In this document: in pieces, positions 5,510-27,094 of the stretch
How the letters are laid out: every line of letters begins with the position of its first letter
How positions within the stretch are numbered: position 1 is the stretch's first letter
Assembly (NCBI GenBank): GCA_038212405.1
Contig: JBBQUN010000002.1
Coordinates: 1 to 61,178, forward strand
Direction of reading: 5' to 3'
DNA: 61,178 bases
Source: Acidimicrobiales bacterium
GTDB lineage: Bacteria; Actinomycetota; Acidimicrobiia; Acidimicrobiales; SZUA-35
The notes under the pieces: model-generated
The model's database searches: none
The model's input: the letters and a program-made list of their open reading frames with translations, nothing else
Told to the model about the DNA's origin: nothing
Program-made: the position numbers and the translations under genes

Positions 5510-5794
5510 TCATTCGTTGGAGACCACCGCACCGAGATCGACGAGGTCGGCCATCACCTGTTCCATGTCGCTTCGGACAACATCGAGCGTGACATCAAAG
5601 ATCTCGACCAGTTCCTCCGCCAATTGCTCGACCGACACCGGTCGCTCGAGAGACGACCACACGATCGCCATCGGCGCTCCGAAGTGATTGACCTGGTCTT
5701 GCCCCGGTGGAATGAGAGCGACACCCTCGAGGACACGACGCCACAACACGTCGACCCGTCGTTGATACAACGGCGGTGCGTCTCGCTCAGTCAT
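5510..5794 (-). CDS. PqqD-family RRE protein, copy 2
   Basis: Start at MTERDAPPLYQRRVDVLWRRVLEGVALIPPG..VSVEQLAEELVEIFDVTLDVVRSDMEQVMADLVDLGAVV (PqqD pattern). Its ATG overlaps the stop of the upstream nucleotidyltransferase gene by 8 nt. Confidence 0.7.
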   Translation of the reverse strand: MTERDAPPLYQRRVDVLWRRVLEGVALIPPGQDQVNHFGAPMAIVWSSLERPVSVEQLAEELVEIFDVTLDVVRSDMEQVMADLVDLGAVVSNE

Positions 5795-6959: not shown

Positions 6960-7010
6960 TCCTCAGACTCGCCTCGGACCAGCGAGTCCTGCCACCGACA
7001 TCACAACGGC

Positions 7011-7928: not shown

Positions 7929-8064
7929 TCTCGCAGCAGACGAGGCAACCCTGCTCGCGTTGAGGTTCTCGTTCCGGTGCGGTTACGAGCAGAGCAAGCC
8001 ATGCCCTCGGTGCCAGCTCACTCGCTACCGGCGAAGCGAACCTCGAGCTGCATGTAGGGGATTC

Positions 8065-8616: not shown

Positions 8617-8706
8617 CCCAGATTCTCCCGCCAGGCACAGCCACCTAGAGTGGCAAAGCTACTGCAGGAACAGTGGGGATGCAACGATCGGCTAGCGTCA
8701 AGCACA

Positions 8707-8994
8707 ATGACTCATGAGTATCGGCGAGTTGCCTCGCCATTTCGAGCGATCGACTCGATGGTCCTCGTCTACAGCCCCTCGCAACAAGAGGTCGTGGTTC
8801 TCTCTGAACTCGCCGCAGCAGTGTGGCAGCTGCTCGAAGTACCGCGAAGCAGCGAGCAGCTTGTCGCAGCAATCGACGGCGGCGGCATCGCCGGCCCCAC
8901 TACGCAGAGCGTCGGGTTGGTGCTCAATACCATCAAGTCCCAAGTCGATGGCGCGTTGAGGAACCTTCGGAAGGTCGGACTTGTCCACCCGTGA
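8707..8994 (+). CDS. PqqD-family RRE protein, copy 3
   Basis: ATG 8707 lies inside ORF 8650..8994. Sequence: MTHEYRRVASPFRAIDSMVLVYSPSQQEVVVLSELAAAVWQLLEVPRSSEQLVAAID...ALRNLRKVGLV. Its 3' end overlaps the next gene by 14 nt. Confidence 0.65.
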   Translation: MTHEYRRVASPFRAIDSMVLVYSPSQQEVVVLSELAAAVWQLLEVPRSSEQLVAAIDGGGIAGPTTQSVGLVLNTIKSQVDGALRNLRKVGLVHP

Positions 8995-10060: not shown

Positions 10061-10717
10061 ACCCGAGTTCGGGCGGAGCGCACCGTAGAGGTCCGGACCG
10101 AACTCGACCAGCGGTTCGAGCAGTGTCGCTGCGTCGATGCGGTGCTGGTGATCGCCATTGCTGATGCGCCTGGCGATGAGCCATATCCGTTGAGCCAGCG
10201 ATGCCGGGGCAGACAAAGGCACACCGGTGAGCAGCACGATCCTCGTCAACTCCAGATCGAGTCGGTGGAGTCTCATGTTCGGGTCGATGTCGAGCACGGT
10301 CGTCGGAAGCAACGCTGCACCCAACGAGGCCAGTCGACGCTCCGACGCCACGAAGTCCGATCCCACGGGCTCGAACCCCACGGCTCGATCACGCCACCGA
10401 ACCGAGCGCATCGCCAGCCTCGCATCAGGAGGTTGCGGCGGATCGGCGAGAACGTGCTCGACCAGCGATGCGAGCGTCATCCCGGCAGCAACGGCGTCTC
10501 GTTCCCTGGCTACCACGCGCCCGCGCCAGTCGAGGATCAAGAGCATCGCTGAGCGGCCGGATCCCGATCGCTGTACCGCGAAGGCGGTGAAGGCATCGTC
10601 ATCGATTCGTGGCGTCGCCTGCCCCTCGAGCCATATGGGTGCAGCCGTGTCGAACACTGCCGGATCCTCCGACACGACCTTGAGCGAGCCATTGGCGAGC
10701 TCGATTCGTTGCTGCAT
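10049..10717 (-). CDS. Hypothetical protein (last gene of the HprK2-PqqD4 operon)
   Basis: 222-aa ORF with good third-position bias and no recognisable motif. It starts 27 nt downstream of PqqD copy 4. Its 3' end overlaps converging nucleotidyltransferase 2 by 12 nt. Confidence 0.45.
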   Translation of the reverse strand: MQQRIELANGSLKVVSEDPAVFDTAAPIWLEGQATPRIDDDAFTAFAVQRSGSGRSAMLLILDWRGRVVARERDAVAAGMTLASLVEHVLADPPQPPDARLAMRSVRWRDRAVGFEPVGSDFVASERRLASLGAALLPTTVLDIDPNMRLHRLDLELTRIVLLTGVPLSAPASLAQRIWLIARRISNGDHQHRIDAATLLEPLVEFGPDLYGALRPNSGSRP

Positions 10718-10744
10718 GGACCCGACCGGGCCCTTCGCCAGCAG

Positions 10745-11095
10745 TCAAGGACTCGGCGGGTCGAAGAACGTCGGGTTGTCGGGCCACGCCCCTTCGATCG
10801 TTTCAGCGTCGGCGAGCAGACCTTCGAGACGGAGGAGTTGCTCCACACGAAGAACCTCGCCGATCGCCACATCTCTCATCACTCCTACCTCGGCGACGAC
10901 ATCGTTGACGAGGTCGCCCATTTGTCCTTCGCCGTCGAAGCAACGGGCGAGGATGGATGCGACAGGATCGAGAAGGACGGGCGCCGGTCGATTCGACGCC
11001 CACGCGATCGACTCGGTGTCGAACGCGCGCACCAGCACGTCCGTTGCCAACGTTGGAACAGCTCGATCCTCGAAGTTCGGTTTTCGGCGGTTCAT
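10745..11095 (-). CDS. PqqD-family RRE protein, copy 4
   Basis: 116 aa. Sequence ..VLLDPVASILARCFDGEGQMGDLVNDVAEVGVMRDVAIGEVLRVEQLLRLEGLL.. fits the PqqD pattern. It has an ATGA start/stop overlap with the upstream kinase gene (11092-11095). Confidence 0.6.
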   Translation of the reverse strand: MNRRKPNFEDRAVPTLATDVLVRAFDTESIAWASNRPAPVLLDPVASILARCFDGEGQMGDLVNDVVAEVGVMRDVAIGEVLRVEQLLRLEGLLADAETIEGAWPDNPTFFDPPSP

Positions 11096-12261
11096 CCTGT
11101 GCGCAATCCCTTCTGCTCGAGTTCGACGAGGAGTCGCTCTGTCCGTTCATCGGCCCCGCCGTCGCAGAACCTGACCCAATCACGTGTATGTTCCGCGTCG
11201 AGCGCAACGAACTGCATCGACGAGTCGATGAGGAGACTCGCCCCATCGATCTCGAGCATCGAGACACCCGCAGTTCGGCCGGTGGTCGAGGCCGCTCGCC
11301 ATTGGAGGGCTCCCGGGCGTCTCGGGCCAGACAGGTGGATCTCGAGCGCTTTCTCCACCGATTCGAGTGCACCTGAGCGAAGACGGATTGCGGTAGCCGC
11401 AGCCAAGAGACGACCGAGTGACAGCACACCGCCGAGGCCGGCGCGCTCAGCGTCCATCACGTGGTCCCGCATCACCTCGACCAACGCATCGATTGGGTGC
11501 GCGATCGACAGCTCCAAAGAATCAACACTGCCGGGCCCCGGTTGGAGTAGCACGATCAGCCCAACCGGGTGGTCATCGGCGCTGACGCGTCCCAGTGCAG
11601 AAGCTCGAACGAGTCGGCCCGCCCCGTGCTGTCGGATGGGAAGACCGTGATCGGCAAGTGTCGGCAGCAGATCGAGGGTGCCGGAGCGAAGGGCGACGGG
11701 TTTCGGGTAGGTCGAGATCTGCGGACTGTCCGAATCGATCGCCACCATCTCGTCCGACAGATAGCACCAGCCGGACTGGAGAAGGTGAGCGGACAGCGTC
11801 GACTTTCCCGTGCGCCGCTTGCCGAGCACCAGAGCGGCGGCGCCGCCACGAGCAAGCGCGGCGGCGTGAAGATGCATTCGCCCCTCATCAGATGCCAAGG
11901 AAAGGCGATTCACCTCTCGCGCAACAGCCCAGAGCGCGTCGGCAATCGAATCGACTTGACGCCAACACCCGTCGAACAAATCGACCATGACGGCCGAGTC
12001 GGCGACGTCGATCGTGGCCGTCGCCAACGGTTGCCGACTCATTGTGTCGGGGTGGCTCACGAGGTCACCGAATACGGCGATCGCCACCTCGACCACCGCT
12101 TGGTCGTTCGACGCAATCTCGAAGACGAACGCGGTCGACGCAAATGCCGGTGTGCGGCTCGGCCGGCTGTCAGGGGGCCTCATGGACCCAGCAATCGCTC
12201 GCAATAGTGTGCGACCATCGATGTCCCTGGCCGGTAGGTCCGAGCCCGGTCGCACGCACAA
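11092..12261 (-). CDS. HPr-kinase-like putative peptide kinase, copy 2 (long form)
   Basis: 389 aa. Motif pattern: LHAAALARGGAAALVLGKRRTGKSTLSAHLLQSGWCYLSDEMVAID (P-loop plus acidic pair). Confidence 0.75.
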   Translation of the reverse strand: MCVRPGSDLPARDIDGRTLLRAIAGSMRPPDSRPSRTPAFASTAFVFEIASNDQAVVEVAIAVFGDLVSHPDTMSRQPLATATIDVADSAVMVDLFDGCWRQVDSIADALWAVAREVNRLSLASDEGRMHLHAAALARGGAAALVLGKRRTGKSTLSAHLLQSGWCYLSDEMVAIDSDSPQISTYPKPVALRSGTLDLLPTLADHGLPIRQHGAGRLVRASALGRVSADDHPVGLIVLLQPGPGSVDSLELSIAHPIDALVEVMRDHVMDAERAGLGGVLSLGRLLAAATAIRLRSGALESVEKALEIHLSGPRRPGALQWRAASTTGRTAGVSMLEIDGASLLIDSSMQFVALDAEHTRDWVRFCDGGADERTERLLVELEQKGLRTG

Positions 12262-12268
12262 TCACCCG

Positions 12269-12871
12269 TCACAGCCGTCGACGAGACGCCATGAGTCCAC
12301 CGTACGTCCCAACCTCGGGGTACTCCATACCCGTATCCATACCCGTATCCCCTCTGGCGTCGAAGCGAAGACCCTCACCGCAGGCGTCGACCTTGCTGCG
12401 CTCGGATCGCGAGGCCGGCCCGCCTTCGGTCAAATCGATCACGTCGGGGAGGTGAACCATGGTCGAGCGGGTTCCTGCGCGATGAGTCGGCACCGTTGAT
12501 ATCCAGCCACTGCGGCCGGCGGGTCGGAGGGAGACCGACCCGATAGCCAGATCGAACACCAACAATGGCAGGAGTCGACGGGGAAACTGGAGCGGCACAC
12601 CACGTGTCGGTGTTCGTCCGAGCCACCCGATTCGATGGTCGCCGAGGGCGGGTTGCGTGGCAGCAATGCGGTGATAGCGGCCGATAGCCCTCAGGATGAT
12701 CACGATCGGCACAAGTAGCCAACCGGCGACGATGAGGCCGGCGGCGGCCACGGCAGCGTCGAAGACCGTCCAGAACGGCTTCGGTCGAGAGGGTGGAGTC
12801 TCCGCATGGGCGCGCAGCGTTATGACGACGCGGTCAGATACCTTTTGGGCTTGGTCTGGGCTCGGTTGCAC
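12269..12871 (-). CDS. Hypothetical membrane-anchored protein
   Basis: 200 aa with one clear hydrophobic helix (AAVAAAGLIVAGWLLVPIVIIL). It lies 7 nt upstream of kinase copy 2. It contains an in-frame 12-bp perfect tandem duplication (12326-12349, encoding DTGMDTGM). Confidence 0.45.
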   Translation of the reverse strand: MQPSPDQAQKVSDRVVITLRAHAETPPSRPKPFWTVFDAAVAAAGLIVAGWLLVPIVIILRAIGRYHRIAATQPALGDHRIGWLGRTPTRGVPLQFPRRLLPLLVFDLAIGSVSLRPAGRSGWISTVPTHRAGTRSTMVHLPDVIDLTEGGPASRSERSKVDACGEGLRFDARGDTGMDTGMEYPEVGTYGGLMASRRRL

Positions 12872-13123: not shown

Positions 13124-13279
13124 ATGTCTATGAACTACGAATCACCATCAATCCGTGAGCTCGGCCGAATCGCCGAACTCACGCTTGGCCAAAACGGAAC
13201 ATCACTCGACGGCAATCGGTCGTACACGCAAACGGGTGGCGGCAACAATGAGGACGATCCGACGGACGACACGCCCTGA
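13124..13279 (+). CDS. Lasso-peptide precursor A2 (51 aa)
   Basis: ATG 13124 sits 3 nt after GGAGGG; the track shows a longer TTG-started 71-aa version. Translation: MSMNYESPSIRELGRIAELTL / GQNGTSLDGNRSYTQTGGGNNEDDPTDDTP. The leader fits YxxPxIxxxGxxxxxTx with the same spacing as A1. Core Gly1..Asp8 allows an 8-residue macrolactam. Confidence 0.8.
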   Translation: MSMNYESPSIRELGRIAELTLGQNGTSLDGNRSYTQTGGGNNEDDPTDDTP

Positions 13280-15440: not shown

Positions 15441-15690
15441 TCGCGAGTCCTCTCGCCAGTAACTCGGCGACGAGTTTGTCGAAGTCGGCGGCGAGGCGTT
15501 CCGGGTCGACGTCGGGAAAGCGCCCGGTGATGGTCGCGAGCGCTGTTTGACGATCGACGTGGGTCGTTCCGACTTCCCACATGAAGGCCGCAGTCGAGTT
15601 CAGTTCGAGATACATCTCGTTGTTGGAATCGAGTACGACCATCTCGTTGTTCACTCGCCGGGCAAAAACGCCTCTCGGTGCCGAAATCAT
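15430..15690 (-). CDS. PqqD-family RRE protein, copy 5 (lasso B1 of the C/B2 operon)
   Basis: Sequence: MISAPRGVFARRVNNEMVVLDSNNEMYLELNSTAAFMWEVGTTHVDRQTALATITGRFPDVDPERLAADFDKLVAELLARGLAI. ATG 15690 lies 8 nt after GGAGGGA; the maximal ORF reaches 15729. It overlaps the B2 start by 11 nt. Confidence 0.75.
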   Translation of the reverse strand: MISAPRGVFARRVNNEMVVLDSNNEMYLELNSTAAFMWEVGTTHVDRQTALATITGRFPDVDPERLAADFDKLVAELLARGLAIGS

Positions 15691-15768
15691 CGTTGTTCCC
15701 TCCATGTCTCCACCCGTCGGCCGTTTCACCCATCCATCAAGGAGTCACATGCCAGTATTCTCCGCCCT

Positions 15769-17556
15769 GTGACCGAGCACCAGACGACCAGTGTGTTCGA
15801 TGCGCTTCGGATGGCCTTGGGTTTCGTCTGGCGGAGCGCTCGCTGGACGCTGGTCATGCTCGCGCTTGCCCAGGTGCTCGCGGCGCTGGCGCTCCTCATG
15901 TTGCTGCTGTCGGTTCGATCGCTGATCGCCGGGCTCGAGGCCGGTGACCAACTGAGTTCGGTCACCTCGTCGGTCGTCGTCTCGTCGCTTGCGTTCCTCG
16001 TGATCGGTGTGGTGGGTGTCGGCTCACAGTCGCTGCAGCTCCTCATGGCGGAGAAGACGAACCGCATCGTGCAGCATGACATCATGCAGATCGCCGTTGG
16101 CGTGCCCTACTCGAGCTACGAAGATCCGGGCTTCCACGATCTGCTCGAGCGGACGACGCAGCGGACGGGAAACAGCTCCCTCCGACTGGTCGGCGGTGTG
16201 CTGACCATCCTCGAGTCGGTCGCCGGGATGTGTGCCGTTGCCATCGCGCTGGCGCGTACCGTGCCGGCGCTGCTTCCGATTCTGCTCGTGGTTGCGCTGC
16301 CGCTGCTCGTCGCTTCCCGAGTCGGCGCACGCATCAACTACCAGATGGCGCTCGAAGTGACCACCGACGATCGGCTGCGTCGATCGATGTTGCTTGCGCT
16401 CACGAGCAAACAGACGGCGCGGGAGGCCCGGACGCTCGGGTTGGGGGCATCACTCGGCACGCGGTGGGATCGGCTCTGGGATCAGCGCATCGCCCTCGTG
16501 CGATCGTTCGCGCTGCGCCGCATGTTCGTCTTGGCCGCGGCCGCCACGCTGTCGGCCTTGATGACCGGCGGCGTGCTCTTCGTGCTGGTGCGAGCAACGG
16601 CGAACGGGACGATCGGTCTCGCCGACGCCTCGGTGGCGGTGTTGGCGTTCCAGCAACTGCTGCAGCGCACCCGCTCCACCGCTCAGGCGACAGGGAACTT
16701 GCGGGAGTCCGCCCTCTTCCTCAGCGACTTCGAATCCCTCGACCAGTACCGGCGGCCCGCTCTTGACGACGGTCTGGCGCTCCCGACGCCCGAGGTGGTG
16801 TCGTTCGAGGATGTCTCGTTTCGATATCCGGGTGGACGGGGCGATGTGTTGGTCGGGACGAGCTTCGAGCTGCGCAGAGGCGAGATGACGGCGCTGGTGG
16901 GTGCCAGTGGGGCTGGCAAGTCGACCCTCGTCCACCTCTTGGCCGGCCTGTATCAGCCGATGACGGGACGGATCCTGTGGGACGGCGCCGACCTTGCCGG
17001 TGTGGACGATCGTGATCGTTGGCGGTCCACCGCGGTGACGTTCCAGGATTTCGGTCGCTTCGACCTCACCGCCAAGGAGAACGTCGAATTGGGAGACGCC
17101 GCTCGCAACGATGCCGAGGCGCTCCGGCACTCGATGGCGGTCGCCGGGATCAGCGACGTGGTCGAGCGTCTCCCCAGCGGCTTGGACACGTTCCTGAGCC
17201 GACTCTTTCCCGGGGGAACCGAGCTCTCTGTGGGGCAGTGGCAACGGCTGGCCGTGGCGCGAGCGCTGTATCGGCGCGCCGCGCTGTTGATCCTCGACGA
17301 GCCCTCGGCGGCCCTGGATGCCGAGTCCGAGGTCGAGTTGATCGATGCGTTGCGGGCCGAGTGCGACGAGCGAGTCGTGCTCGTCGTCTCTCATCGATTC
17401 AGCACGGTGCGTCGAGCAGACCGCATTCTGGTGCTCGACGCTGGTCGCATCGTGGAAGACGGCAGCCACGATGACTTGATGGGCCTCGACGGTCGCTACG
17501 CCCGACTGTTCCGACTCCAGATGGCCGAACCGCCGGCTGCAGTCGACCCTGGCTGA
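15769..17556 (+). CDS. ABC transporter, fused permease/ATPase (lasso-type exporter), copy 2
   Basis: GTG 15769 is in frame with ORF 15547..17556. TM domain, then Walker A GASGAGKST, signature LSVGQWQRLAVARAL and Walker B LLILDEPSA. Confidence 0.85.
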   Translation: MTEHQTTSVFDALRMALGFVWRSARWTLVMLALAQVLAALALLMLLLSVRSLIAGLEAGDQLSSVTSSVVVSSLAFLVIGVVGVGSQSLQLLMAEKTNRIVQHDIMQIAVGVPYSSYEDPGFHDLLERTTQRTGNSSLRLVGGVLTILESVAGMCAVAIALARTVPALLPILLVVALPLLVASRVGARINYQMALEVTTDDRLRRSMLLALTSKQTAREARTLGLGASLGTRWDRLWDQRIALVRSFALRRMFVLAAAATLSALMTGGVLFVLVRATANGTIGLADASVAVLAFQQLLQRTRSTAQATGNLRESALFLSDFESLDQYRRPALDDGLALPTPEVVSFEDVSFRYPGGRGDVLVGTSFELRRGEMTALVGASGAGKSTLVHLLAGLYQPMTGRILWDGADLAGVDDRDRWRSTAVTFQDFGRFDLTAKENVELGDAARNDAEALRHSMAVAGISDVVERLPSGLDTFLSRLFPGGTELSVGQWQRLAVARALYRRAALLILDEPSAALDAESEVELIDALRAECDERVVLVVSHRFSTVRRADRILVLDAGRIVEDGSHDDLMGLDGRYARLFRLQMAEPPAAVDPG

Positions 17557-18416
17557 CGCCGGAACACCCGGTCGAGCCCTGCCCTGACATCGCTCGGCGG
17601 CAGGAAGGCCAGGACGGCCACGATCATGATCGGCGTGAAGATGCCGACTCGGAGAAAGATCGCAAAGACGAGATGGAGCGCCACCGAGGTGGCGACGCCT
17701 ACACGTGGTCGAGTCACGAGCAGGATCGGCAGCACCAACTCGGTGAGCAGCACCAGGTAGGTCAGGGCGGTGGTGCCGAGGACGGTCTCACTGAGCAACG
17801 AGGGCATCGGCACCGACGCGACGCTCGGGTTGTGCAGCGCGGCATACACCGCTTCGCCCTGTCGCCACGTCGATCCTTGGAGCTTCCAGATCACGCTCGT
17901 GCAATAGACCACGATGACCTGGAGCCGGACCGATGCGACGAACAGCCGTGGTCGCTCGCGACCGGGAGCGGAGAGATTCCCGGTCAGGGTGGAGTGTGAA
18001 CCCAGGAACAGGGCAACGACGGCCCACATCAGGATCAGGCGGAGGAGCTGGTCGCCGGCGTTGATCGCGGCGGGCTGGAGTCGTTGGATCGACGTCACAC
18101 CGATGAACGCGATGACCACGCCGATCCGCGATGCTCGCCCGAGGGTCAGCGAGACACCGACGGCGGCGATGCCGAGGAGCACCAGAGTCACCCACCAGGC
18201 TGGGGAGCCGGCGAAGAACAGGGTCCAACTGAATCGACGGCCGGCTTCGGTGGGGAAGATCGACGAGTCGGAAAGGAGGGAGCGGGCGTCGAGGAGCCAC
18301 GAGAGTGACCACCAGCAGATCAACGCACCGAGGAGCGTTCTGACGAGCACCTCGGTATCTGGCTGCTCGGCGGCGAAGAATCGGCGGTGGAGCTGGCCGA
18401 GGATCGTGGTCGTCAC
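17496..18416 (-). CDS. HTTM-domain (vitamin-K-dependent gamma-carboxylase-like / SdpB-like) membrane protein
   Basis: 306 aa, polytopic. Pattern: LVRTLLGALICWWSLSWLLDARSLLSDSSIFP ... RLQVIVVYCTSVIWKLQGSTWRQGEAVYAAL ... LTELVLPILLV...ALHLVFAIFLRVGIFTPIMI, as in HTTM/SdpB-family proteins. Confidence 0.65.
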   Translation of the reverse strand: MTTTILGQLHRRFFAAEQPDTEVLVRTLLGALICWWSLSWLLDARSLLSDSSIFPTEAGRRFSWTLFFAGSPAWWVTLVLLGIAAVGVSLTLGRASRIGVVIAFIGVTSIQRLQPAAINAGDQLLRLILMWAVVALFLGSHSTLTGNLSAPGRERPRLFVASVRLQVIVVYCTSVIWKLQGSTWRQGEAVYAALHNPSVASVPMPSLLSETVLGTTALTYLVLLTELVLPILLVTRPRVGVATSVALHLVFAIFLRVGIFTPIMIVAVLAFLPPSDVRAGLDRVFRRQPGSTAAGGSAIWSRNSRA

Positions 18417-18991
18417 CCGTCGAACCCTCCCGCCGCCGGTTCCGCCTGCGAGTCGGTGGCCAGGATGCCCTCGTCGAGAGAGAAGATCGGTGTCGTGATT
18501 TCTGTCGGCTCACCATCGTTGCCTCGGCCAGGATCGAGGTTGGTGACTCGCACCAGGACGACGTCGACGACGTCCATGCCACGGTCCTCGGCATCGCTTG
18601 CCAGGTTCTCGGCCAACGGTTGCCAGAGCTCGTAGTTCTCGTTCGACACCATCTCCTTCGAGACCTTCTCCCAACGTCGGTCTCTCAAGAGCTGCCACTG
18701 CGGCGGAACGAGCGGTTCGTAGATCTCGATGGTGCCGTCGCTCGCGTGGAGCTCGACACGGAGATGTGGTGCGGTGGTTCCGGGGTTGGGAGCGAACATC
18801 GCCCAGCCCTGCACGCCGGCGGTCAGGTCGTAGAGCGGAGCCAGTCGGGCTTGTGCGGGGCGACCTACCCGCGGGTGAGGAAACGCGGCGAGGAGAGCTC
18901 CGACGACGAACGCCGCGTACACCAGTACCCGAAGACGGTCAGTCCTGGGCAACGAGTTGCTCCAGCAGACGACGGGCCGACTCCAATCCAT
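18413..18991 (-). CDS. Membrane-anchored protein, possibly SdpA/DUF5819-like partner of the HTTM protein
   Basis: It has an ATGA overlap with the HTTM gene start, one N-terminal TM helix (VLVYAAFVVGALLAAF) and the motif VQGWAMFAPNP. Start ATG 18991 is uncertain; GTG 18922 would avoid overlapping the upstream kinase gene. The family assignment is from memory and position only. Confidence 0.4.
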   Translation of the reverse strand: MDWSRPVVCWSNSLPRTDRLRVLVYAAFVVGALLAAFPHPRVGRPAQARLAPLYDLTAGVQGWAMFAPNPGTTAPHLRVELHASDGTIEIYEPLVPPQWQLLRDRRWEKVSKEMVSNENYELWQPLAENLASDAEDRGMDVVDVVLVRVTNLDPGRGNDGEPTEITTPIFSLDEGILATDSQAEPAAGGFDG

Positions 18992-19802: not shown

Positions 19803-19889
19803 GACCCCTCCCTCCGAGCGAGCTTAGGGTTCCACCGATGTTTGGTACATGGGCATCGATCCCACCTCGATGCCGGTACAGGAGTGTGG

Positions 19890-20891
19890 TCAGCTGACGA
19901 TGAGCCTGCGAGATTGGTAGGCGAGATAGCGGAGTCGGTTTCGGGTGCTCGTCTGATTGGCGAGAACCGCGATGGTCTCGCGGGCGACGCTCCGACTCGT
20001 CCGCAGGTAGGCGCGGTTGATGGCGGACTTGGAGATTCGTGGCGGCGGTGGAGGCTCGGGGTTTCCGATGGCCACCGCCAGCCACCGAGCCACCGAGACC
20101 AGGTCGATGATGCCGAACAGGCGCGCCAGATCGTCGACGCGATCTTCGTCGAGGTCTTGGCGTGTTTGGATGAGGGCGACGTCGACCAGCGACGAAAGCC
20201 GTCGGTGCTCGGGCGGTGACAAGAAGAGGTGCCCGGCTGCGTGGACGAGCCGGCCTGCAGGGTCGAGCGCATGGCCCAACTCGTTCGGTAGCGGCATCAA
20301 CTGACCGTACAGCTCCTTCGAGCCGTGAGGCCCGAAGCGGAACAGGCGATGGTGCACATCGAGTTCGATGCCGCTCGGCGTTCGAAAGGTCTGCTCGACG
20401 AGGAGGTCGGTCGGTTCACCCGCCTTCAAGGGTTCGTAGTGTTGGCCGAGTGTCTGGCACGCCCGAGCGAAATCGCCGTCAGGCACGAGGAGGTCGACAT
20501 CACCAGTGTGGCGAACCGCGCCGGCGGGGTAGTCGAGGTGTGACGTGGCGAGACCCTTGAGGATCACTGCGTCGACGCCGATTTCCGCGAGTTGGTTGAC
20601 GGTTCGGCGGGCAGCCGAGGTGAGGTGGAGAGCGAGGACGGTGACGTTGTGGGCTTCGTCGGCGGTGTCACCGAGAGCGGTCAACAGCGATCGGATCCTG
20701 TGCCGTTCGGCAAAGGCGAGCAGAGGCGGTGTGAGCTGGAGGTCGAGCGTGGTCGCACCCGCCAGGTGATCGATGCAGGCGCGCACCAACTCTGCGCCGC
20801 CAACCGGGGCGGCCTCGTCGACGAGTCGGATTGGGTCGGTACGTATCTGCGGCGAAAGATGCACACTGCCAGGTCTTGTCGAGGAGGTCAT
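19890..20891 (-). CDS. Nucleotidyltransferase family protein (NTP_transf_5-like), copy 3
   Basis: 333 aa. Signature AVILKGLATSHLDYPAGAVRHTGDVDLLVPDGDFARACQTL. Its ATG overlaps the stop codon of the upstream sugar phosphotransferase gene (ATGA at 20888-20891). Confidence 0.75.
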   Translation of the reverse strand: MTSSTRPGSVHLSPQIRTDPIRLVDEAAPVGGAELVRACIDHLAGATTLDLQLTPPLLAFAERHRIRSLLTALGDTADEAHNVTVLALHLTSAARRTVNQLAEIGVDAVILKGLATSHLDYPAGAVRHTGDVDLLVPDGDFARACQTLGQHYEPLKAGEPTDLLVEQTFRTPSGIELDVHHRLFRFGPHGSKELYGQLMPLPNELGHALDPAGRLVHAAGHLFLSPPEHRRLSSLVDVALIQTRQDLDEDRVDDLARLFGIIDLVSVARWLAVAIGNPEPPPPPRISKSAINRAYLRTSRSVARETIAVLANQTSTRNRLRYLAYQSRRLIVS

Positions 20892-21526
20892 CGCCTTGGC
20901 GATTCGGCGCCCATGAACTCCTCGGCGCCGATGGACATGCCTTCAGCCGCAACGCCTTCGCCCTTGAGCACGACCTTCACGGTCTTGATGATGATCTGAA
21001 GGTCGAGTCGCAGGCAATGGCGCTCGACGTACTCGACATCCAGCGCGAAGCGGTCGTCCCACGACAAGTGGTTGCGGCCGCTCGTCTGCGCCAAACCGGT
21101 GAGACCGGGGCGAACCTCGTGGCGCCTTGCTTGTTCGGGTGTGTAGCGGTCGAGGTAGCGCATCAGTAACGGCCGGGGTCCAACGAGGCTCATGTCGCCC
21201 CGAAGGACGTTCAACAGCTCCGGCAACTCGTCGAGGCTCGTGCGACGCAATCGTTCGCCGAAGGGATGGGTTCGTTCGGCGTCGGGAAGTAGCTCACCGT
21301 CGGGTGCGACGGCCGAGGTCATGGTGCGGAACTTGAGGAGTTCGAAGGGTTCACCGTGCAGCCCCGGGCGGGTCTGGCGGAACAGCACCGGCGAGCCGAG
21401 CCGAGTTCGCACGAGTAGCCCTACCACCATCAGCACTGGCGCAGCAATCACGAGCGCTGCGCCGCTGACGACGATGTCGATCGCTCGTTTGAAAGCACGT
21501 TGTGCTGTTCGACCGGGTGACGACAT
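20888..21526 (-). CDS. Small monotopic phosphoglycosyl transferase (bacterial sugar transferase, PglC/WbaP-C-terminal type)
   Basis: ATG 21526 (MSSPGRTAQRAFKRAIDIVVSGAALVIAAPVL..). Motifs present: PVLFRQTRPG, LLKFRTM, RRTSLDELPELLNVLRGDMSLVGPRP and RPGLTGLAQ. The 94 Arg-rich codons upstream in the 306-aa ORF overlap the next gene and are rejected. Confidence 0.85.
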   Translation of the reverse strand: MSSPGRTAQRAFKRAIDIVVSGAALVIAAPVLMVVGLLVRTRLGSPVLFRQTRPGLHGEPFELLKFRTMTSAVAPDGELLPDAERTHPFGERLRRTSLDELPELLNVLRGDMSLVGPRPLLMRYLDRYTPEQARRHEVRPGLTGLAQTSGRNHLSWDDRFALDVEYVERHCLRLDLQIIIKTVKVVLKGEGVAAEGMSIGAEEFMGAESPRR

Positions 21527-21531
21527 CGGGG

Positions 21532-23484
21532 TCAGAGTATCTCGACGTTGTTGCCGACGAGTTTGACGTTGACGAAGGACTTGTTGCGATTCAGTGTGTC
21601 GACCTTGGCTTTCGAGGTGTCGAATCCCAGGATGTCGAAACCGTCTTCGACAGCCCGAATGGCGGCGGGAAGACTGACGTAGCCCCGACCGACGCTGAGG
21701 ATGCCCTCGGTGTCGCGCGCCTGAAGCAGTGCGTGTACGTCGAGCGTGCCGGTAGGCAGTTCCGAGCGGGTATGGGTGATTCGTTTGTGCTCGCGGTGCT
21801 CGACGCACTCCGAGGCAGCGACGAGGATTTCATGCATTTTCTCACCGGGCCGAAGGCCGGTGAACACGATCTCCACGTCGGTTCCCGAGTGGTCGATGAG
21901 TTGTTGCGCCAGGTCGAGGATCTTCACTGGCGATCCCATGTCGAGAATGAGGACTTCGCCCGGACGGCCGATCGCACCGGCCTGCAAGACGAGACGGACC
22001 GCTTCGGGGATCGTCATGAAATAGCGGGTGACGCCGGGGTGGGTGACGGTGATCGGGCCACCGAGTTCGATCTGTTGGCGGAAGGTGGGGAGCACGGATC
22101 CTCGTGAGCCGAGGACGTTGCCGAAGCGAACAGAGACGTATTTTCTCCCGGTCTCGGCCGCAAATCGGGCGGTTTCACGTTCAGCCAGGAGTTTGGTGGC
22201 GCCCAGCACGCTGGTGGGGTCGGCGGCCTTGTCGCTCGACACGTTGACGAAGTGCGAACATCCAACGTCGGTGGCCGCCTCGAGGAGGTTGCGCGTACCG
22301 AGCGTATTGGTCTTGACAGCCTCGCCGGGGTGCAGTTCGAGCAAGGTCAGGTGCTTCAAAGCCGCGGCGTGGAAGACCACCTGCGGTTTCCATCGGGCGA
22401 ACACTTCGCGCATGCGCTCGGCGTCGCGGATATCGGCAACGACCAGGTGGGGATCATCGAGCAGTGCCTTTCCCTCGATGGAGAGCTGCACGCTGTGTAG
22501 TGCTGTCTCGTCCCGGTCAAGCATGATCAAGTCGCTCGGGCCGAGCTGGTGCAGCTGTCTCGCCAGTTCGGAGCCGATCGACCCTCCGGCTCCGGTGACC
22601 AACACTCGCTTGCCTGCGATGTAGTCGAGAATTGACGGGAGGTCGACGTCGACCTCGGCCCGGCCCAGTAGGTCGGCTTCGGTGAGTTCTCGAATGTCGC
22701 CAACGCTGAGCTGGCCCATCATTTCGGCGGTAGTTGGCACGACCCGAATGTCGAGGCCCGCATGACGACCCAACTCGTCGACCTCCATCACGAGGGCGGC
22801 GCTGGCGGTCCGAATGGCGATGAGCAAGATCGACGCGTCGAGTGATTCCGCCCTGGCCGCGATTGTGGAACGGTTCCCTACGACGGCAACGCCGCAAAGG
22901 CGACGCTTCGACTTGTAGGGATCGTCGTCGATGATGCCGACGGGAAGATAGGGCGAGAGCGGATCGGTGAGCATGGCTCGCACCATTTCTGCGCCGGTGT
23001 CGCCGGCACCGAAGACGAGCACTCGGGTTCGATCGTCGTTCGATTGCAGCAGGCGGTAGTGCTCCGACACCATCCACCAGATCTGGCGAACACCGATCAT
23101 CGCCAGGCCGGCCATTGGCGCTCCGAGCACCAAAGCGGCGCCGGCCGAGGGGCGAGTGACGAGCGCCAGTTCGAGGGTCAGGGTCGACAGCAGCCACGAA
23201 CTGAGCAGCAGCGTTTGCTCGTCTCGGCTGCCGATGCGATGTCGCCCCAGATAGAGATCACGTGAGACACCGAAGAGGAGCTGCATACCAGCAGCGCCAC
23301 CGGCGATCGCAGCCACGAACTGCATCGAAGCACCAGGAGAAAGCACCAACGCCGCTATGGCTACCCCCGCGATCCACGAGAGTCCATCGAGGGTTGCCAA
23401 CGTGGCTCGGCGCCACCGCACCACGAAGTTGGGCACGGGCACGTGGGTTTGCAAGAAGTGTTCCGGAACGGTGGCTGCCGCCAT
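21532..23484 (-). CDS. Membrane-bound nucleotide-sugar 4,6-dehydratase (CapD/PglF/WbpM-like polysaccharide biosynthesis protein), copy 1
   Basis: 650 aa. N-terminal TM helices, a CoA-binding-like domain (VLVFGAGDTGAEMV) and an SDR domain (VLVTGAGGSIGSELARQL, FHAAALKHL, STDKAADPTSVLGATK). Confidence 0.85.
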   Translation of the reverse strand: MAAATVPEHFLQTHVPVPNFVVRWRRATLATLDGLSWIAGVAIAALVLSPGASMQFVAAIAGGAAGMQLLFGVSRDLYLGRHRIGSRDEQTLLLSSWLLSTLTLELALVTRPSAGAALVLGAPMAGLAMIGVRQIWWMVSEHYRLLQSNDDRTRVLVFGAGDTGAEMVRAMLTDPLSPYLPVGIIDDDPYKSKRRLCGVAVVGNRSTIAARAESLDASILLIAIRTASAALVMEVDELGRHAGLDIRVVPTTAEMMGQLSVGDIRELTEADLLGRAEVDVDLPSILDYIAGKRVLVTGAGGSIGSELARQLHQLGPSDLIMLDRDETALHSVQLSIEGKALLDDPHLVVADIRDAERMREVFARWKPQVVFHAAALKHLTLLELHPGEAVKTNTLGTRNLLEAATDVGCSHFVNVSSDKAADPTSVLGATKLLAERETARFAAETGRKYVSVRFGNVLGSRGSVLPTFRQQIELGGPITVTHPGVTRYFMTIPEAVRLVLQAGAIGRPGEVLILDMGSPVKILDLAQQLIDHSGTDVEIVFTGLRPGEKMHEILVAASECVEHREHKRITHTRSELPTGTLDVHALLQARDTEGILSVGRGYVSLPAAIRAVEDGFDILGFDTSKAKVDTLNRNKSFVNVKLVGNNVEIL

Positions 23485-23808
23485 TTGGCTCTCCTGGTAT
23501 TCGGTTGCTCCTGAGCCGATCGGCCCACGACCGACGCACTTGAGTACTCCGCCAACTTCCTGTGATCATCGAAGTGCCGAGAGTGAGGTCGTGCCCGACG
23601 ACCGACGCTCGATCCCCGAAAAGGGAAGACTCTGCGTTTGGTTGGCTATCGTTCTGCTCGCGGGTTTGTAGTCGAACAGGACCTTGGTCAAGGAGGCGTT
23701 GCGCGGCGGCTCAATTCTGCGGTCGTGGTGTCGATAGGCAATAGGTCGACCGATTCATCCGCAGCAGCGGCGCTCCACCGCTTACTCTCACCCTCAGCTC
23801 AGGACGAC

Positions 23809-25029
23809 ATGACGAATCTGAACAACGATCGGTCAAGAGTTGCGAGCCGGTCGAACGGCGATGTCGTGGCCGGCTCGTCCGTGAGCCCGGACCAGAACCG
23901 GGTCCTACTCTCGGCTCCCGACGTCGGCCCGGCCGAACGCGAAGCCTTGCTACGGGCGTTCGACAGCGGATGGATTGCTCCGCTTGGCCCCGAGGTCGAT
24001 GCGTTCGAGGCTGAGCTTGCCGGCTACGTGGGTGCGGAATCGTGCGTTGCCCTGGCCAGCGGTACCGCAGCGCTCCAGCTTGCGCTGATCGCGGTCGGCG
24101 TCAAGCCGGGCGACGAGGTGGTCGTGCAGTCAGCCACCTTCGCCGCATCCGCCTTTGCCGCCGTGCACGCCGGTGCCGTTCCTGTCTTCTGTGACAGCGA
24201 TCGCGCCACCTGGAACATGGACCCCGACGCTCTCGAATCGCTGCTCGAACAGCGTGCAGCGAGTGGTCGACTTCCTGCTGCCGTGATGCCGGTCGACCTC
24301 TATGGGATGCTGGCCGACTACGAGCGAATCGAAGCCATCTGTGCCCGGTTCGACGTGCCTCTGGTGGAGGATGCGGCCGAAGCGCTGGGATCGATCGGAA
24401 ACGATGGTCGCTTTGGCGGAACGTACGGGAACTGCGGCGCGGTGTCGTTCAACGGCAACAAGATCATCACCACGAGTGGGGGAGGAGCGCTCTTCGGCCC
24501 GCCCGAGATCACCGAACGTGTCCGGTTCCTCGCCACCCAAGCGCGTCAACCCGAGCTGCACTACGAACACCTCGAGATCGGTCACAATGCTCGGCTCTCG
24601 AATCTGCTTGCTGGTATCGGCCGAGCGCAGCTCGTCAGCCTCGAGAGCAAGATCGAGCGCCGGACTGCTGTCTTCGACACATACCACGAGGCCTTTCCCC
24701 AGATCGAGTGGATGCCCGCGGGTGTGACGAGTCGCCCCAATCGTTGGTTGAGCGTCGGATTGTTGCCCGAGGGCATCAGCCCCGCGGCAGTTTGCAAGGC
24801 TTTGGAAGAGCACGATGTCGAGGCTCGACCGGCTTGGAAGCCAATGCACGCACAACCGATTTTTGCTTCCAACCAGGCCGAAGTGTTGGCGGTTGCCAAC
24901 GAGATCTTCGCCCGCGGCATCTGTCTTCCTTCTGGCTCGGCGATGACGGATACCGATATCGAGCGAGTCGTCGTTGCGCTCCGGCTTGCCCTCGAAGCTG
25001 CTCCACAACGCGTGTCTGCGGCGTCATGA
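23809..25029 (+). CDS. DegT/DnrJ/EryC1-family PLP-dependent sugar aminotransferase (PglE-like)
   Basis: ATG 23809 lies inside ORF 23638..25029. Pattern: LSAPDVGPAEREALLRAFDSGWIAPLGPEVDAFE..., SGTAALQLAL, GAVSFNGNKIITTSGGGAL (catalytic Lys region). Confidence 0.85.
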   Translation: MTNLNNDRSRVASRSNGDVVAGSSVSPDQNRVLLSAPDVGPAEREALLRAFDSGWIAPLGPEVDAFEAELAGYVGAESCVALASGTAALQLALIAVGVKPGDEVVVQSATFAASAFAAVHAGAVPVFCDSDRATWNMDPDALESLLEQRAASGRLPAAVMPVDLYGMLADYERIEAICARFDVPLVEDAAEALGSIGNDGRFGGTYGNCGAVSFNGNKIITTSGGGALFGPPEITERVRFLATQARQPELHYEHLEIGHNARLSNLLAGIGRAQLVSLESKIERRTAVFDTYHEAFPQIEWMPAGVTSRPNRWLSVGLLPEGISPAAVCKALEEHDVEARPAWKPMHAQPIFASNQAEVLAVANEIFARGICLPSGSAMTDTDIERVVVALRLALEAAPQRVSAAS

Positions 25030-25268: not shown

Positions 25269-25913
25269 ATGGACTCAAACCCCATGAGCTCGGTGACGAT
25301 TCTCGGTGGCGGCGGACATGGCAGCGATGTACTTGCGGTGATCGAAGCGCTGGCCGGTGGCAGCCGCTTCGATCACGTGCTCGTCGCCGACGATCAGTTC
25401 GCCAGACGTGAGCGATTCGAGGACCGATCGGTGGAGTTGGTCGACGGATTGGCCAATGCACTCGACCGCTGCCCTCGATTCGTCTCCGGCATCGGTGATC
25501 CGAGCCTGCGCCGTCTGACATGCGAGAAGGTCGGTGCTTCCGGCCTCGCAGTCGACGTCCTCGTGCATCGTTCGGCCGACATCGGTGCCGGGTTTCGTGC
25601 GGGCGCGGGCTCGGTGGTCTTCGGGCAGGTATGGGTTTCGCCACGAGTCCAGATGGGGATGCACGTTCACGTGTCTTACGGAACGACGATCGGGCATGAC
25701 TCGCTGATCGGCGACTTCACGGGCGTCATGCCGGGGTGCGGAATCGCCGGCGACGTCGACATCGGCACCGGTGTGATGGTGGGTGCGGGAGCGATGATCT
25801 TGCAAGGCCTGCGTCTTGGTGATGGTGCGGTGATCGGCGCAGGCGCCGTGGTGACCAAGAATGTTGCGCCGGGTGCCACCGTCGTTGGTGTGCCTGCTAG
25901 GCAAGTGGGATGA
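25269..25913 (+). CDS. Sugar N-acetyltransferase, NeuD/PglD family (left-handed beta-helix)
   Basis: 214 aa. N-terminal ILGGGGHGSDVLAVIE, then C-terminal hexapeptide repeats GVMPGCGIAGDVDIGTGVMVGAGAMILQGLRLGDGAVIGAGAVVTKNVAPGATVVGVPAR. Confidence 0.8.
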   Translation: MDSNPMSSVTILGGGGHGSDVLAVIEALAGGSRFDHVLVADDQFARRERFEDRSVELVDGLANALDRCPRFVSGIGDPSLRRLTCEKVGASGLAVDVLVHRSADIGAGFRAGAGSVVFGQVWVSPRVQMGMHVHVSYGTTIGHDSLIGDFTGVMPGCGIAGDVDIGTGVMVGAGAMILQGLRLGDGAVIGAGAVVTKNVAPGATVVGVPARQVG

Positions 25914-27094
25914 GTCGCCGTGTGCTCGTTCTCAACCAGTTCGCCCTGCCGCTCAGCGGCGGTGGTGGGACCCGTCATGTGGAAATCTTCGGTCGTTTGA
26001 GGGATTGGGACGTAGAGATCGTTGCGGCCGACAAGCACTACTTCGACCAGAGCCCCGTCCGGTCAGAGGGAATCCTGCACACCGTTCCCGTCACTCGGTT
26101 CAGCGGAAACGGACTGTCTCGCATCATCAACTGGGCCAGCTTCTCCGGGATGGCCTTGGTCTACGGGCTTTGGCGGCCCAAGCCCGACGTGGTCTACGGC
26201 TCATCGCCGCACCTCGGTGCGGCACTTGCCGGTCTCATCATCGCCAAGCTCCGTCGGGCTGGTGTCGTGCTCGAGGTTCGTGACCTGTGGCCACAGATCC
26301 TGGTTGACTCGGGGATGATGTCAGCCGAGTCGAAGGTCTTTCGGCTGCTCCGGTGGCTCGAGCGCTTTCTTTACTGCTCAGCCGATCGCATCGTGATTCT
26401 TGCCGAAGGGAGCCGGGGGCCGATCGTCTCTCTCGGTATCGCCGATGACAAGATCGTCTTCATCCCCAATGGTGCCGACCCCGACGATTTCATTCCGACT
26501 GCCGATCGGGTCGTTCTGCGTGAACGCTACGGATTCGATTCGTTCACTGCCGTCTATGCGGGAGCGCACGGCCCGGCCAATGGGCTTGACCTGGTCCTCG
26601 ATGCCGCTGCCGAGCTCAAAGTGATGGGTAGTGACATCACGATTTGCCTCGTCGGCGATGGTGTCGTCAAGGCCGACCTCGTCGATCGAGCAAGGCGCGA
26701 TGGGCTGAGCAACGTGAAGTTCATGGATCCGATACCGAAGACCGAAATGGCCGACCTACTCGGCGCGGCCGATGTTGGGCTTCACAGTCTCGCCGATATC
26801 GAACTCTTCAAAACGGGAGTGAGCCCGAACAAGTTGTACGACTACATGGCGGCCGGACTGCCGGCATTGACCAACACCGGCGGCGACGTTGCCGGGATGG
26901 TCCGAGAAGCCGGTTCTGGAATCGCCGTCGAACCAACGGGCATCGCTGAGGGTTTGATGGAGCTGTCGTCGATCGATGACGAAGCCCGAGCGGCCATGTG
27001 CTCGAACGGGCGAGCCTTCATGGAAGCCGAACGTTCGAGATCGGCGATGGCCCAAAGAGTTGAGACCGTTCTCGACGCCGTGTCGAAACGATGA
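25910..27094 (+). CDS. GT4-family glycosyltransferase (WbuB-like)
   Basis: 394 aa. N-terminus VLVLNQFALPLSGGGGTRHVEIF. The C-terminal GT-B domain has SPNKLYDYMAAGLPAL. ATGA-type overlap with the neighbouring genes. Confidence 0.75.
   Translation: MSRRVLVLNQFALPLSGGGGTRHVEIFGRLRDWDVEIVAADKHYFDQSPVRSEGILHTVPVTRFSGNGLSRIINWASFSGMALVYGLWRPKPDVVYGSSPHLGAALAGLIIAKLRRAGVVLEVRDLWPQILVDSGMMSAESKVFRLLRWLERFLYCSADRIVILAEGSRGPIVSLGIADDKIVFIPNGADPDDFIPTADRVVLRERYGFDSFTAVYAGAHGPANGLDLVLDAAAELKVMGSDITICLVGDGVVKADLVDRARRDGLSNVKFMDPIPKTEMADLLGAADVGLHSLADIELFKTGVSPNKLYDYMAAGLPALTNTGGDVAGMVREAGSGIAVEPTGIAEGLMELSSIDDEARAAMCSNGRAFMEAERSRSAMAQRVETVLDAVSKR

Follow-up and report, generated by a model that had tools for sequence, protein, structure and literature searches.

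A lasso peptide tailoring block joined by an ATGA overlap to a surface-glycan locus in an Acidimicrobiales bacterium

In the lasso peptide pseudomycoidin, the C-terminal Ser receives a phosphate from the kinase PsmK, and one or two hexoses are placed on this phosphate in a step that requires PsmN (PMC6993621; review PMC8498205). Deletion of psmK abolished all modification, whereas deletion of psmN removed only the hexose on the phosphate (PMC6993621). PsmN was modelled on ANT(2''), its D134A/D136A mutant was inactive, it worked in E. coli without a cluster-encoded phosphoglycosyl transferase (PGT), and the products were phosphodiester or pyrophosphate-linked (PMC6993621). That study could not decide between PsmN as a novel type of glycosyltransferase (GT) and PsmN as the maker of a substrate for host enzymes (PMC6993621); the chemistry and sugar donor of PsmN-type nucleotidyltransferases (NTases) are unsettled. 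Here we analysed a window of 61,178 nt (the whole stretch of DNA under study) on contig JBBQUN010000002.1 of the Acidimicrobiales bacterium assembly GCA_038212405.1, in which the third gene of the NTP_transf_5 family (NTase3) overlaps a PGT gene of a glycan locus and lies beside a lasso peptide cluster. As in the clusters for pseudomycoidin (psm, Bacillus pseudomycoides) and paeninodin (pade, Paenibacillus dendritiformis), split B1/B2, C and D genes occur together with those for a putative HprK-type kinase and an NTP transferase (termed "uncharacterised"). A preliminary description of this DNA had stated that a kinase and an NTP_transf_5-type protein phosphorylate and then glycosylate pseudomycoidin, in line with the published work (PMC6993621; PMC8498205). 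The window provides a concrete test case for this chemistry.

On the minus strand, a PglF-like dehydratase, a small PGT, NTase3, an HprK/ScmC-type kinase, a 192-aa membrane protein and an HTTM protein are encoded in a tight string (Table 1), and the spacers read from the sequence are, in this order, 5, -4, 87, about -14 to -53, and -4 nt. The open reading frame (ORF) of the PglF-like protein stops at a TGA and is followed by a 5-nt gap (ccccg); the PGT gene then runs from an ATG at 21526 to a TGA at 20890-20888, which forms an ATGA overlap with the NTase3 start. Reading the minus strand confirmed the gene order, coordinates, 5-nt gap and ATGA overlap given in the preliminary description. Residues 19-26 of NTase3 hold an N-terminal motif ("PIRLVDE"; "PIDYLE" in homologues) upstream of every later start codon. 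Because these conserved residues precede all later starts, the NTase3 start lies at most 27 nt from the PGT stop. Between the NTase3 end (19890) and the kinase ATG at 19802 there are 87 nt, followed by GGAGGGAGG; a 10-codon ORF in this spacer was considered as a precursor gene and judged too short. The 192-aa ORF overlaps the 3' end of the kinase gene (18939), with its start at 18991 (ATG) or 18952 (TTG) and its end at 18413, and the HTTM ORF (18416-17496) begins with a GTGA overlap.

The preliminary description had named a promoter or terminator separating these genes as a point that would count against its reading. Our computed search of the PGT/NTase3 and NTase3/kinase junctions found neither sigma-70-like nor terminator-like sites; RNA folding at the junctions was no better than that of shuffled sequences (z = -1.8, and -1.4 for the 87-nt spacer), and there was no U-tract. 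With a shared strand, short or negative spacers and an absence of terminator-like sites, the string has the features of an operon, and the six genes would most likely be transcribed together, starting in the divergent promoter region at 23.5-23.8 kb, where the intergenic stretch 23485-23808 is the probable promoter region of the string. A TAAGCT is found about 20 nt 5' of the kinase ATG, inside the 87-nt spacer, and an internal promoter or second transcription start is possible there; the counterpart of this spacer in the related locus L036 (related loci are cited by our own handles) is a 289-nt divergent intergenic region. At its 3' end the string runs into the convergent plus-strand ATP-binding cassette (ABC) exporter gene, and the lasso core genes therefore lie outside its transcript: B1/B2/C (15729-13288, minus strand) and the precursor gene (plus strand) are transcription units separate from the string. 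The HTTM gene overlaps the convergent ABC gene by 61 nt, 3' end to 3' end (17496-17556), and convergent overlaps of 10-22 nt are present in L036, L041, L042 and the P0027 contig.

Our preferred explanation, to which we assign a probability of roughly 0.5, is that a lineage-specific rearrangement docked a lasso tailoring block (NTase3, the kinase, the DUF5819-like 192-aa protein and the HTTM protein) directly after the two leading genes, those for the PglF-like dehydratase and the PGT, of a surface-glycan locus of the Wzx/Wzy type, and that the kinase and NTase3 phospho-glycosylate the peptide while being co-expressed with the supply of a UDP-amino-sugar. The fusion itself is real but lineage-specific, as judged from gene order in the window and in its relatives.

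To place the seam within the string, we traced the relatives of the PGT and of the kinase separately. Among 43 kinase homologues, orthologues with 54-62% identity adjoined lasso genes where flanking DNA was recovered. The block of kinase, ~180-aa protein, HTTM protein and convergent ABC exporter was present in L036 (kinase 54.5% identical), on the P0027 contig (62%) and in L041 and L042 (57%). L036 carries the same block, the convergent ABC gene, then B1-B2-C and the precursor gene, with identities to the window of 66% for the 180-aa protein, 61% for HTTM, 61.5% for ABC, 59% for PqqD, 54% for B2 and 42% for C, and its precursor is almost identical (MSYETPEIRELGLMSELTLGQNGTSLDGNRSFTQTGGGNDTDDPTDDNP, ...LTLGQNGTSLDGNRSFTQTGGGNDTDDPTDDNP). 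Because L036 is orthologous to the window throughout and the block recurs in five loci, the kinase, 192-aa and HTTM genes belong to the lasso cluster, where they are a conserved part of an Acidimicrobiia-type cluster. The window cluster itself has the expected composition, with an RRE/PqqD-type B1, a transglutaminase-type protease B2 and an Asn-synthetase-type cyclase C. An NTP_transf_5 gene also neighbours the kinase in L036, but it is divergent and its product is only 33% identical to NTase3; the glycan genes of L036 (Wzy_C, Wzz, PGT) lie at the opposite side of the lasso cluster, and no ORF was found at positions 1-555 of that locus. Upstream of the kinase orthologue most similar to that of the window (L040) lies a partial ORF of 44 aa, which was examined as a possible NTase and could not be identified as one.

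The kinase motifs GPSGSGKST (GxSGxGKST) and GGDDG were invariant. Against TIGR04352 HprK_rel_A the kinase reached E 9e-9 and 34.8 bits, below the cut-off of 200; there were further weak P-loop matches, and the match to HPr kinase in the PDB had an E of only 0.03. It is presumed to be the Ser/Thr kinase for the lasso precursor. The label "SdpA-like" in the preliminary description has no support beyond gene position, as the Pfam search of the 192-aa protein gave no SdpA match and only the DUF5819 match listed in Table 1. The HTTM protein matched TIGR04033 export_SdpB at 5e-11 and 42.7 bits, far below the cut-off of 178.

On the other side of the junction, the PGT had more than 8000 homologues, the best of which, L047 (a metagenome-assembled genome (MAG) of Acidimicrobiales) and L048, were 75-76% identical. 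Both of these orthologues lie in Wzy/GT4/PglD/Epimerase_2 glycan loci, and the next gene is a DegT aminotransferase, not an NTase. With its DE dyad (SLDELPEL) and hydrophobic N-terminal helix, the window PGT is predicted to be an ordinary glycan-initiating enzyme that primes on undecaprenyl phosphate. Its C-terminal tail AAEGMSIGAEEFMG is kept in orthologues, with only ~5 extra residues in the window, and the PGT gene is therefore intact; a reading of the final 20 residues as read-through of an old spacer was ruled out on the same ground. With a lasso-cluster block on one side and orthologues of glycan-locus PGTs on the other, the seam is placed exactly at the ATGA, and the PGT/NTase3 junction is specific to this contig. 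The statement that no boundary is visible between the glycan and lasso loci thus did not hold once relatives were compared. We also considered the PGT as a member of the lasso block with the seam at the relic described below, prompted by lone PGT/NTase pairs in L016, L032 and L046, and rejected this because its nearest kin are glycan-locus PGTs.

A junction of this kind could come from an assembly chimera of two unrelated loci, and the window indeed matches a single metagenome-type contig with no duplicate in the protein database. However, neither ORF is broken, their overlap is exactly 4 nt and carries no repeat at the join, the GC content stays even over 18-24 kb (0.63-0.65), and the orthologous lasso cluster of L036 is also flanked by glycan genes. 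We give this explanation hardly any weight.

The glycan side has been reshaped close to the junction. The PglF-like protein has an N-terminal CoA_binding_3 region by Pfam, as in membrane PglF-type enzymes, and its 61% identity to a second copy in the window (37397-39361) stops at residue 571; the final ~60 codons of the ORF derive from another gene. These match the N-terminus of UDP-sugar dehydrogenases: Pfam UDPG_MGDP_dh_N covers residues 596-637 (E 1.6e-5), and BLASTP aligned 49 aa at 57% identity to residues 2-50 of the dehydrogenase of L047 (E 1e-17), with 36% over 53 aa for the L005 dehydrogenase. PDB matches were the N-termini of Cap5O and UDP-ManNAcA dehydrogenase. The GxGxxG motif has decayed to GRGYVS. 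This relic is a deletion scar, with a second breakpoint just upstream of the PGT. A dehydrogenase relic beside the PGT means that this part of the locus was reshaped by deletion, which is evidence of recent rearrangement.

The scar also bears on the main alternative, in which a deletion in a variable glycan island put the NTase3 block against the PGT, perhaps with co-transcription, and the two share no substrates. Besides the adjoining scar, this neutral juxtaposition would fit a junction unique to this contig, a standard and highly conserved PGT, and the ~40 kb of glycan genes in the window with several Wzx/Wzy candidates, an extent that makes a glycan neighbour likely by position alone. It does not predict, however, the non-orthologous sugar-gene neighbours seen in L001, L002, L016, L032, L036, L037, L041 and L046, and a 4-nt overlap between two intact ORFs suggests selection for coupled expression. 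We consider a neutral origin possible but rather unlikely. If the fusion is only positional, it amounts to no more than a well-documented case in which an operon was captured at a deletion scar.

NTase3 is predicted to be an enzyme of the Pol-beta-fold nucleotidyltransferase type. Its DxD...D.H centre is intact, and D131, D133, D178 and H180 are invariant among homologues. The AlphaFold2 model reached a predicted local distance difference test (pLDDT) of 89 and a predicted template-modelling score (pTM) of 0.90, and the nearest solved folds were MenT1, the aminoglycoside nucleotidyltransferase ANT(2'')-Ia, LnuA and FKRP. FKRP forms phosphodiesters from CDP-ribitol. The closest homologue, in L001 (52% identity), lies 3 nt downstream of Epimerase/Epimerase_2 (UDP-GlcNAc 2-epimerase) genes at the edge of a lasso cluster; the next ones are at a lasso/glycan interface (L002) and inside GT/sulfotransferase/flippase clusters (L004, L005, L006). 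A scan of GTDB genomes with an alignment of the NTase3 subfamily found no relatives, and this branch has so far been seen only in metagenome assemblies.

In the preliminary description, the lipid-linked glycan was offered as an alternative substrate of the kinase and NTase. On that view the two enzymes would attach a substituent, through a phosphate, either to the sugar on undecaprenyl pyrophosphate or to the polymer, in the way of LicD/FKRP-type NTase-fold enzymes; FKRP is indeed among the structural neighbours of NTase3, NTP_transf_5 genes of L004, L005 and L006 occur within glycan clusters where no lasso cyclase is recognisable, and NTase3 has no adjacent PqqD gene. These observations are outweighed by others. 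Kinase orthologues adjoin lasso genes, with a PGT near or not, in every context with enough flanking DNA (L036, L037, L039, L041, L043-L046 and P0027), the closest NTase3 homologues are in lasso clusters, a PqqD gene still overlaps the NTase gene in L005, and the substrate of PsmN is a peptide (PMC6993621). We regard a glycan substrate as improbable.

The candidate acceptor is the lasso precursor, which has Thr at position -2 and reads ...AELTL/GQNGTSLD...; as expected of a lasso precursor, the core begins with Gly and has an Asp within positions 7-9, where Asp or Glu is required, and a Gly1-Asp8 ring is possible. Related peptides were found in L037, L039, L001 and L041, and the precursor features are conserved in L036, L037 and L039.

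In the mechanism that we propose, co-transcription, kinase activity, acceptor residue, sugar and the functional weight of the fusion are what we infer. By analogy with pseudomycoidin, the kinase would act first and phosphorylate a Ser or Thr, either in the precursor or in the lasso peptide (core GQNGTSLDGNRSYTQTGGGNNEDDPTDDTP). NTase3 would then build a sugar-phosphate (phosphodiester) decoration on the phosphorylated site, using a UDP-sugar. Co-transcription with the PglF-like gene would couple this step to the pool of UDP-4-keto/4-amino-6-deoxy-HexNAc, and the PglE- and PglD-like genes, transcribed divergently from the same 23.5-23.8 kb region, would contribute to the same sugar supply. The PGT would keep its ordinary role in priming the glycan on undecaprenyl phosphate.

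Docking followed by phospho-glycosylation is favoured by the tight spacing, the lack of terminator-like sites and the presence of the same peptide and block in L036, together with the conserved catalytic residues of NTase3 and a fold close to ANT(2'') and FKRP. Several findings weigh against it. The PGT-to-NTase junction is missing from the nearest relatives of both partners: the PGT orthologues (L047, L048) precede DegT, and the gene 5' of the kinase orthologues is divergent (an NTase in L036, a truncated ORF in P0027) or is another co-directional gene (L041, L042). The preliminary description had itself named such a lack of conservation as grounds for refutation, and on this check its adjacency was not kept in L036, L041, L042, L047, L048 or P0027. 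The kinase assignment depends on weak similarity, and NTase3 has no adjacent PqqD-type peptide-binding partner, unlike NTase1 and NTase2 of the window. The precursor ends in ...DDTP (...DDNP in L036) rather than in Ser, unlike paeninodin and pseudomycoidin; it thus departs from the pseudomycoidin acceptor rule, and the acceptor must be an internal Ser or Thr. Finally, glycan genes predominate over the 61-kb contig as a whole, so that their closeness to the tailoring genes could be a coincidence. Functional coupling of the glycan and lasso genes is plausible on this balance.

The association of NTP_transf_5 genes with sugar genes extends beyond this window. A Pfam census covered 68 ORFs that flank 29 NTP_transf_5 genes, and assigned 17 of these ORFs to sugar-transfer or sugar-nucleotide families; counts among the 68 were ABC_tran 7, GlcNAc-GT 5, PqqD 5, Bac_transf 4, HPAT 4, GT25 2, Epimerase_2 1 and GT1 1. 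Sugar-transfer genes are therefore as typical of NTP_transf_5 neighbourhoods as lasso hallmarks. Four immediate PGT neighbours among ~30 NTases are far above our rough guess of 0.05-0.2 by chance, which assumes 3-10 PGT genes per genome. This context, with the L001 homologue 3 nt from a UDP-GlcNAc 2-epimerase gene, supports the tie between the NTase and sugar chemistry suggested in the preliminary description. In the literature searched we found nothing linking lasso clusters or PF14907 to PGTs or sugar-nucleotide operons, and the habit of NTP_transf_5 genes of sitting beside sugar-transfer genes is wider and undescribed.

Small PGTs directly adjoin NTP_transf_5 genes in L016 (a divergent pair with SufBD at the other side), L032 (PGT divergent from B2-NTase-PqqD) and L046 (an Actinomycetota MAG with PqqD-kinase-B2-C-ABC, then the PGT, then a convergent NTase), with no obvious surrounding glycan locus. 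Since the PGTs and NTases of L016, L032 and L046 fall in different sub-branches, these adjacencies are probably independent. They raise the idea that the PGT takes part in peptide chemistry: the kinase would yield a phospho-peptide and the NTase an NDP-peptide, and the PGT would move the phospho-peptide to undecaprenyl phosphate or a lipid-linked sugar, or sugar-1-phosphate onto the phospho-peptide. This would suit pairs that occur apart from other glycan genes, and it would suit the PGT reaction, as PglC is established to use NDP-X donors and phosphate acceptors. Such chemistry on a phospho-peptide has no precedent to our knowledge, and the window PGT is orthologous to ordinary glycan PGTs (76% to L047), with only 36-48% identity to the NTase-adjacent PGTs of L016, L032 and L046. 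The products of pseudomycoidin tailoring, being phosphodiester or pyrophosphate-linked, would agree with this route, but PsmN was functional in E. coli with no cluster-encoded PGT. A role of the PGT on the peptide is a long shot in our view, as is the more general proposal that an NTP_transf_5 protein and a small PGT act as a functional pair, building a phosphodiester or pyrophosphate bridge between a phosphorylated ribosomal peptide and a polyprenyl-linked sugar or surface glycan, which we consider quite doubtful. If it were true, the lasso peptide would be displayed on, or built from, the surface-glycan pathway and not simply secreted, and the neighbours in L016, L032 and L046 and the window fusion would be independent traces of that chemistry. 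As a separate observation, L046 (3685-17743, JALZKD010000023.1) holds two lasso clusters back to back, the second of which precedes the lone PGT and NTase, with no other glycan genes visible.

In the marine loci L008, L012 and L017-L020 (also L028), the NTP_transf_5 gene overlaps a downstream 320-aa ORF, which Pfam assigned to the PF11397 GlcNAc-type GT family in L019 and four further census loci. L019 (4619-15656) also has an HPAT-like GT, a prolyl-4-hydroxylase-like 2-oxoglutarate (2OG) oxygenase, a P-loop protein and an epimerase near the NTase; no lasso cyclase was seen in L019 and its kin, and these genes together resemble a system for the glycosylation of hydroxyproline in a peptide. In the lasso clusters with the closest NTase3 homologues (L001 3861-6327 and L041 1216-3508), PhyH is also encoded, with a 2OG-Fe(II) oxygenase in L001 only, and a GT25 gene lies next to PqqD, which hints at peptide hydroxylation followed by O-glycosylation.

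The recurrence of genes for PGTs, GlcNAc-transferases, HPAT-like GTs, GT25 and enzymes of UDP-sugars beside NTP_transf_5 genes, in many cases along with PqqD, suggests that Acidimicrobiia and marine bacteria have a broader, as yet unexplored range of ribosomal peptides with phospho-glycosylation. In the present case, an NTase3 gene overlapping a defined UDP-amino-sugar operon by ATGA leads to the expectation of an adduct of specific mass on a peptide that is known.

Table 1. Features of the 61,178-nt window, by position
Feature	Position	Strand	Basis or remark
PqqD-like gene	5893-5510	-	overlaps NTase1
NTase1	6959-5787	-	
GNAT	7928-7011	-	
TAT-signal protein	8616-8065	-	
PqqD-like gene	8650-8994	+	overlaps NTase2
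NTase2	8981-10060	+	
Further ORF	10717-10049		
PqqD-like gene	11095-10745	-	overlaps HprK_rel_A-type kinase
HprK_rel_A-type kinase	12261-11092	-	
Further ORF	12871-12269		
Lasso precursor, MSMNYESPSIRELGRIAELTL/GQNGTSLDGNRSYTQTGGGNNEDDPTDDTP	13124-13279	+	read from sequence
Cyclase C	15090-13288	-	Asn_synthase 3.6e-24
B2	15440-14979	-	Transglut_core3 1.2e-21
B1/PqqD	15729-15430	-	PqqD-like by reading; 59% to Pfam-annotated L036 PqqD
Lasso ABC exporter (D)	15547-17556 (true start probably downstream of 15547)	+	ABC_tran 7e-28; 61.5% to L036 ABC
HTTM/SdpB-like polytopic membrane protein, 306 aa, last in string	17496-18416	-	HTTM 33 bits, 6e-8 (cut-off 27.7)
192-aa protein, one N-terminal membrane helix, HTTM partner	18413-18991	-	Pfam DUF5819 E 0.12 only
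HprK/ScmC-type P-loop kinase, copy 3, 287 aa	18939-19802	-	weak profile matches; precomputed family PF27840 ScmC
NTase3-kinase spacer, 87 nt	19803-19889	-	GGAGG ribosome-binding site
NTP_transf_5 copy 3 (NTase3), 333 aa, Pol-beta-fold nucleotidyltransferase-type	19890-20891	-	PF14907 74.4 bits (cut-off 31.2)
ATGA overlap, PGT stop/NTase3 start	20888-20891	-	read from sequence and translations
Small monotopic PGT, 212 aa, EpsL/PglC type	20888-21526	-	Bac_transf 200 bits, 2.9e-59
UDP-sugar (ManNAc/Glc-type) dehydrogenase relic, first ~50 codons, in-frame at end of PglF-like ORF	21565-21715 (approximate)	-	Pfam, BLASTP
PglF-like UDP-HexNAc 4,6-dehydratase, 650 aa, first in string	21532-23484	-	Polysacc_synt_2 337 bits, 1.2e-100
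Divergent intergenic region, PglF-like/PglE-like	23485-23808	.	likely aminotransferase start ATG 23809
PglE-like aminotransferase	23809-25029	+	Pfam DegT 2e-87; domain starts at residue 98 of 23638 ORF
PglD-like acetyltransferase	25269-25913	+	Hexapep and PglD_N 22.5 bits (cut-off 23.4)
GT4	25910-27094	+	Glyco_trans_4_4, Glyco_trans_1_4

The lasso region to the left of the string further encodes NTase1 and NTase2 of the NTP_transf_5 family, three additional PqqD-like proteins and a second HprK-type kinase, besides a GNAT, a PrmA-like methyltransferase and a second ABC exporter. Many of these form a second tailoring region beside the lasso core (5510-12871), in which no second cyclase or precursor was found. 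The PrmA-like methyltransferase and second ABC exporter genes lie at 1065-4731 on the plus strand; in relatives, a PrmA-type gene occurs within the lasso operon itself (ABC-NTase-PqqD-PrmA-kinase-B2-C in L039; also L043-L045). An antisense ORF at 16450-17469 (339 aa, no Pfam match) was ruled out by the high third-position GC and the homology of the ABC gene.

Right of the PGT, glycan biosynthesis genes continue to at least 58 kb and include a heparinase II/III-like protein, a sulfotransferase and further GTs. A PglF-type dehydratase, DegT aminotransferase, PglD-type acetyltransferase and small monotopic PGT together are the set expected for a UDP-diNAcBac-type pathway, and the PglF/PglE/PglD-like enzymes are predicted to make a UDP-2,4-diamino-2,4,6-trideoxyhexose-type sugar, with the GT4 probably extending the glycan. 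With the region 27000-58400, there are two parallel glycan systems, with two PglF-like proteins (61% identical), two PGTs, two Wzz/BY-kinase co-polymerases, two Polysacc_synt (Wzx-type) flippase candidates and one Wzy-family polymerase match; the second PGT is fused to a GT4 (49381-46484). At 28-34 kb the GC content falls to 0.55, which suggests that the core was acquired horizontally. On the minus strand, 39464-42682 encodes a large protein (1072 aa) of the AAA_16 type, and in L047 a 979-aa AAA_16-domain protein (6988-9927) is encoded directly upstream of the orthologous PGT; such proteins may regulate these loci.

When the window is set against described systems, kinase/NTase-tailored lasso clusters and lasso glycosylation are already known (PMC6993621; PMC11912497). 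Davasins are reported to be lasso peptides glycosylated by the GT IgtG on a Ser of the mature lasso (PMC11912497). They share with the window a glycosylated lasso peptide, reported for davasins and proposed here, and differ in their classical glycosyltransferase, with no kinase/NTase pair and no phosphodiester described (PMC11912497). Like SdpA/SdpB (Bacillus subtilis sdpABC), the window has an HTTM polytopic protein with a weak SdpB-family match, a small upstream partner and a peptide-maturation context; unlike sdpABC, the small partner has no SdpA match (very weak DUF5819), and the SdpB model score is 42.7 against a cut-off of 178. The Campylobacter-type pgl system (UDP-diNAcBac; PglF, PglE, PglD, PglC) has the same four enzyme types, adjacent in the window: a 4,6-dehydratase of the membrane type, a DegT aminotransferase, a hexapeptide acetyltransferase whose start is PglD_N-like, and a monotopic PGT of ~200 aa. 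No oligosaccharyltransferase turned up in the window, where no search aimed at one was made. Unlike Campylobacter pgl, the window locus goes on as a Wzx/Wzy/Wzz polysaccharide cluster, its dehydratase ORF bears the relic of a foreign gene, and its operon runs into genes for a peptide made on the ribosome and modified after translation. NTase3 resembles PsmN in its DxD pair, which is essential in PsmN, and in its ANT(2'')-like fold, a comparison based on the published description of PsmN. In contrast to psm and pade, the host is an actinobacterium (Acidimicrobiia-like), the peptide lacks a terminal Ser, and the window has three NTases, two recognisable kinases (HprK3 and that at 12261-11092), four PqqD copies and an HTTM/DUF5819-like pair, with NTase3 placed behind a sugar-pathway operon instead of between B2 and D.

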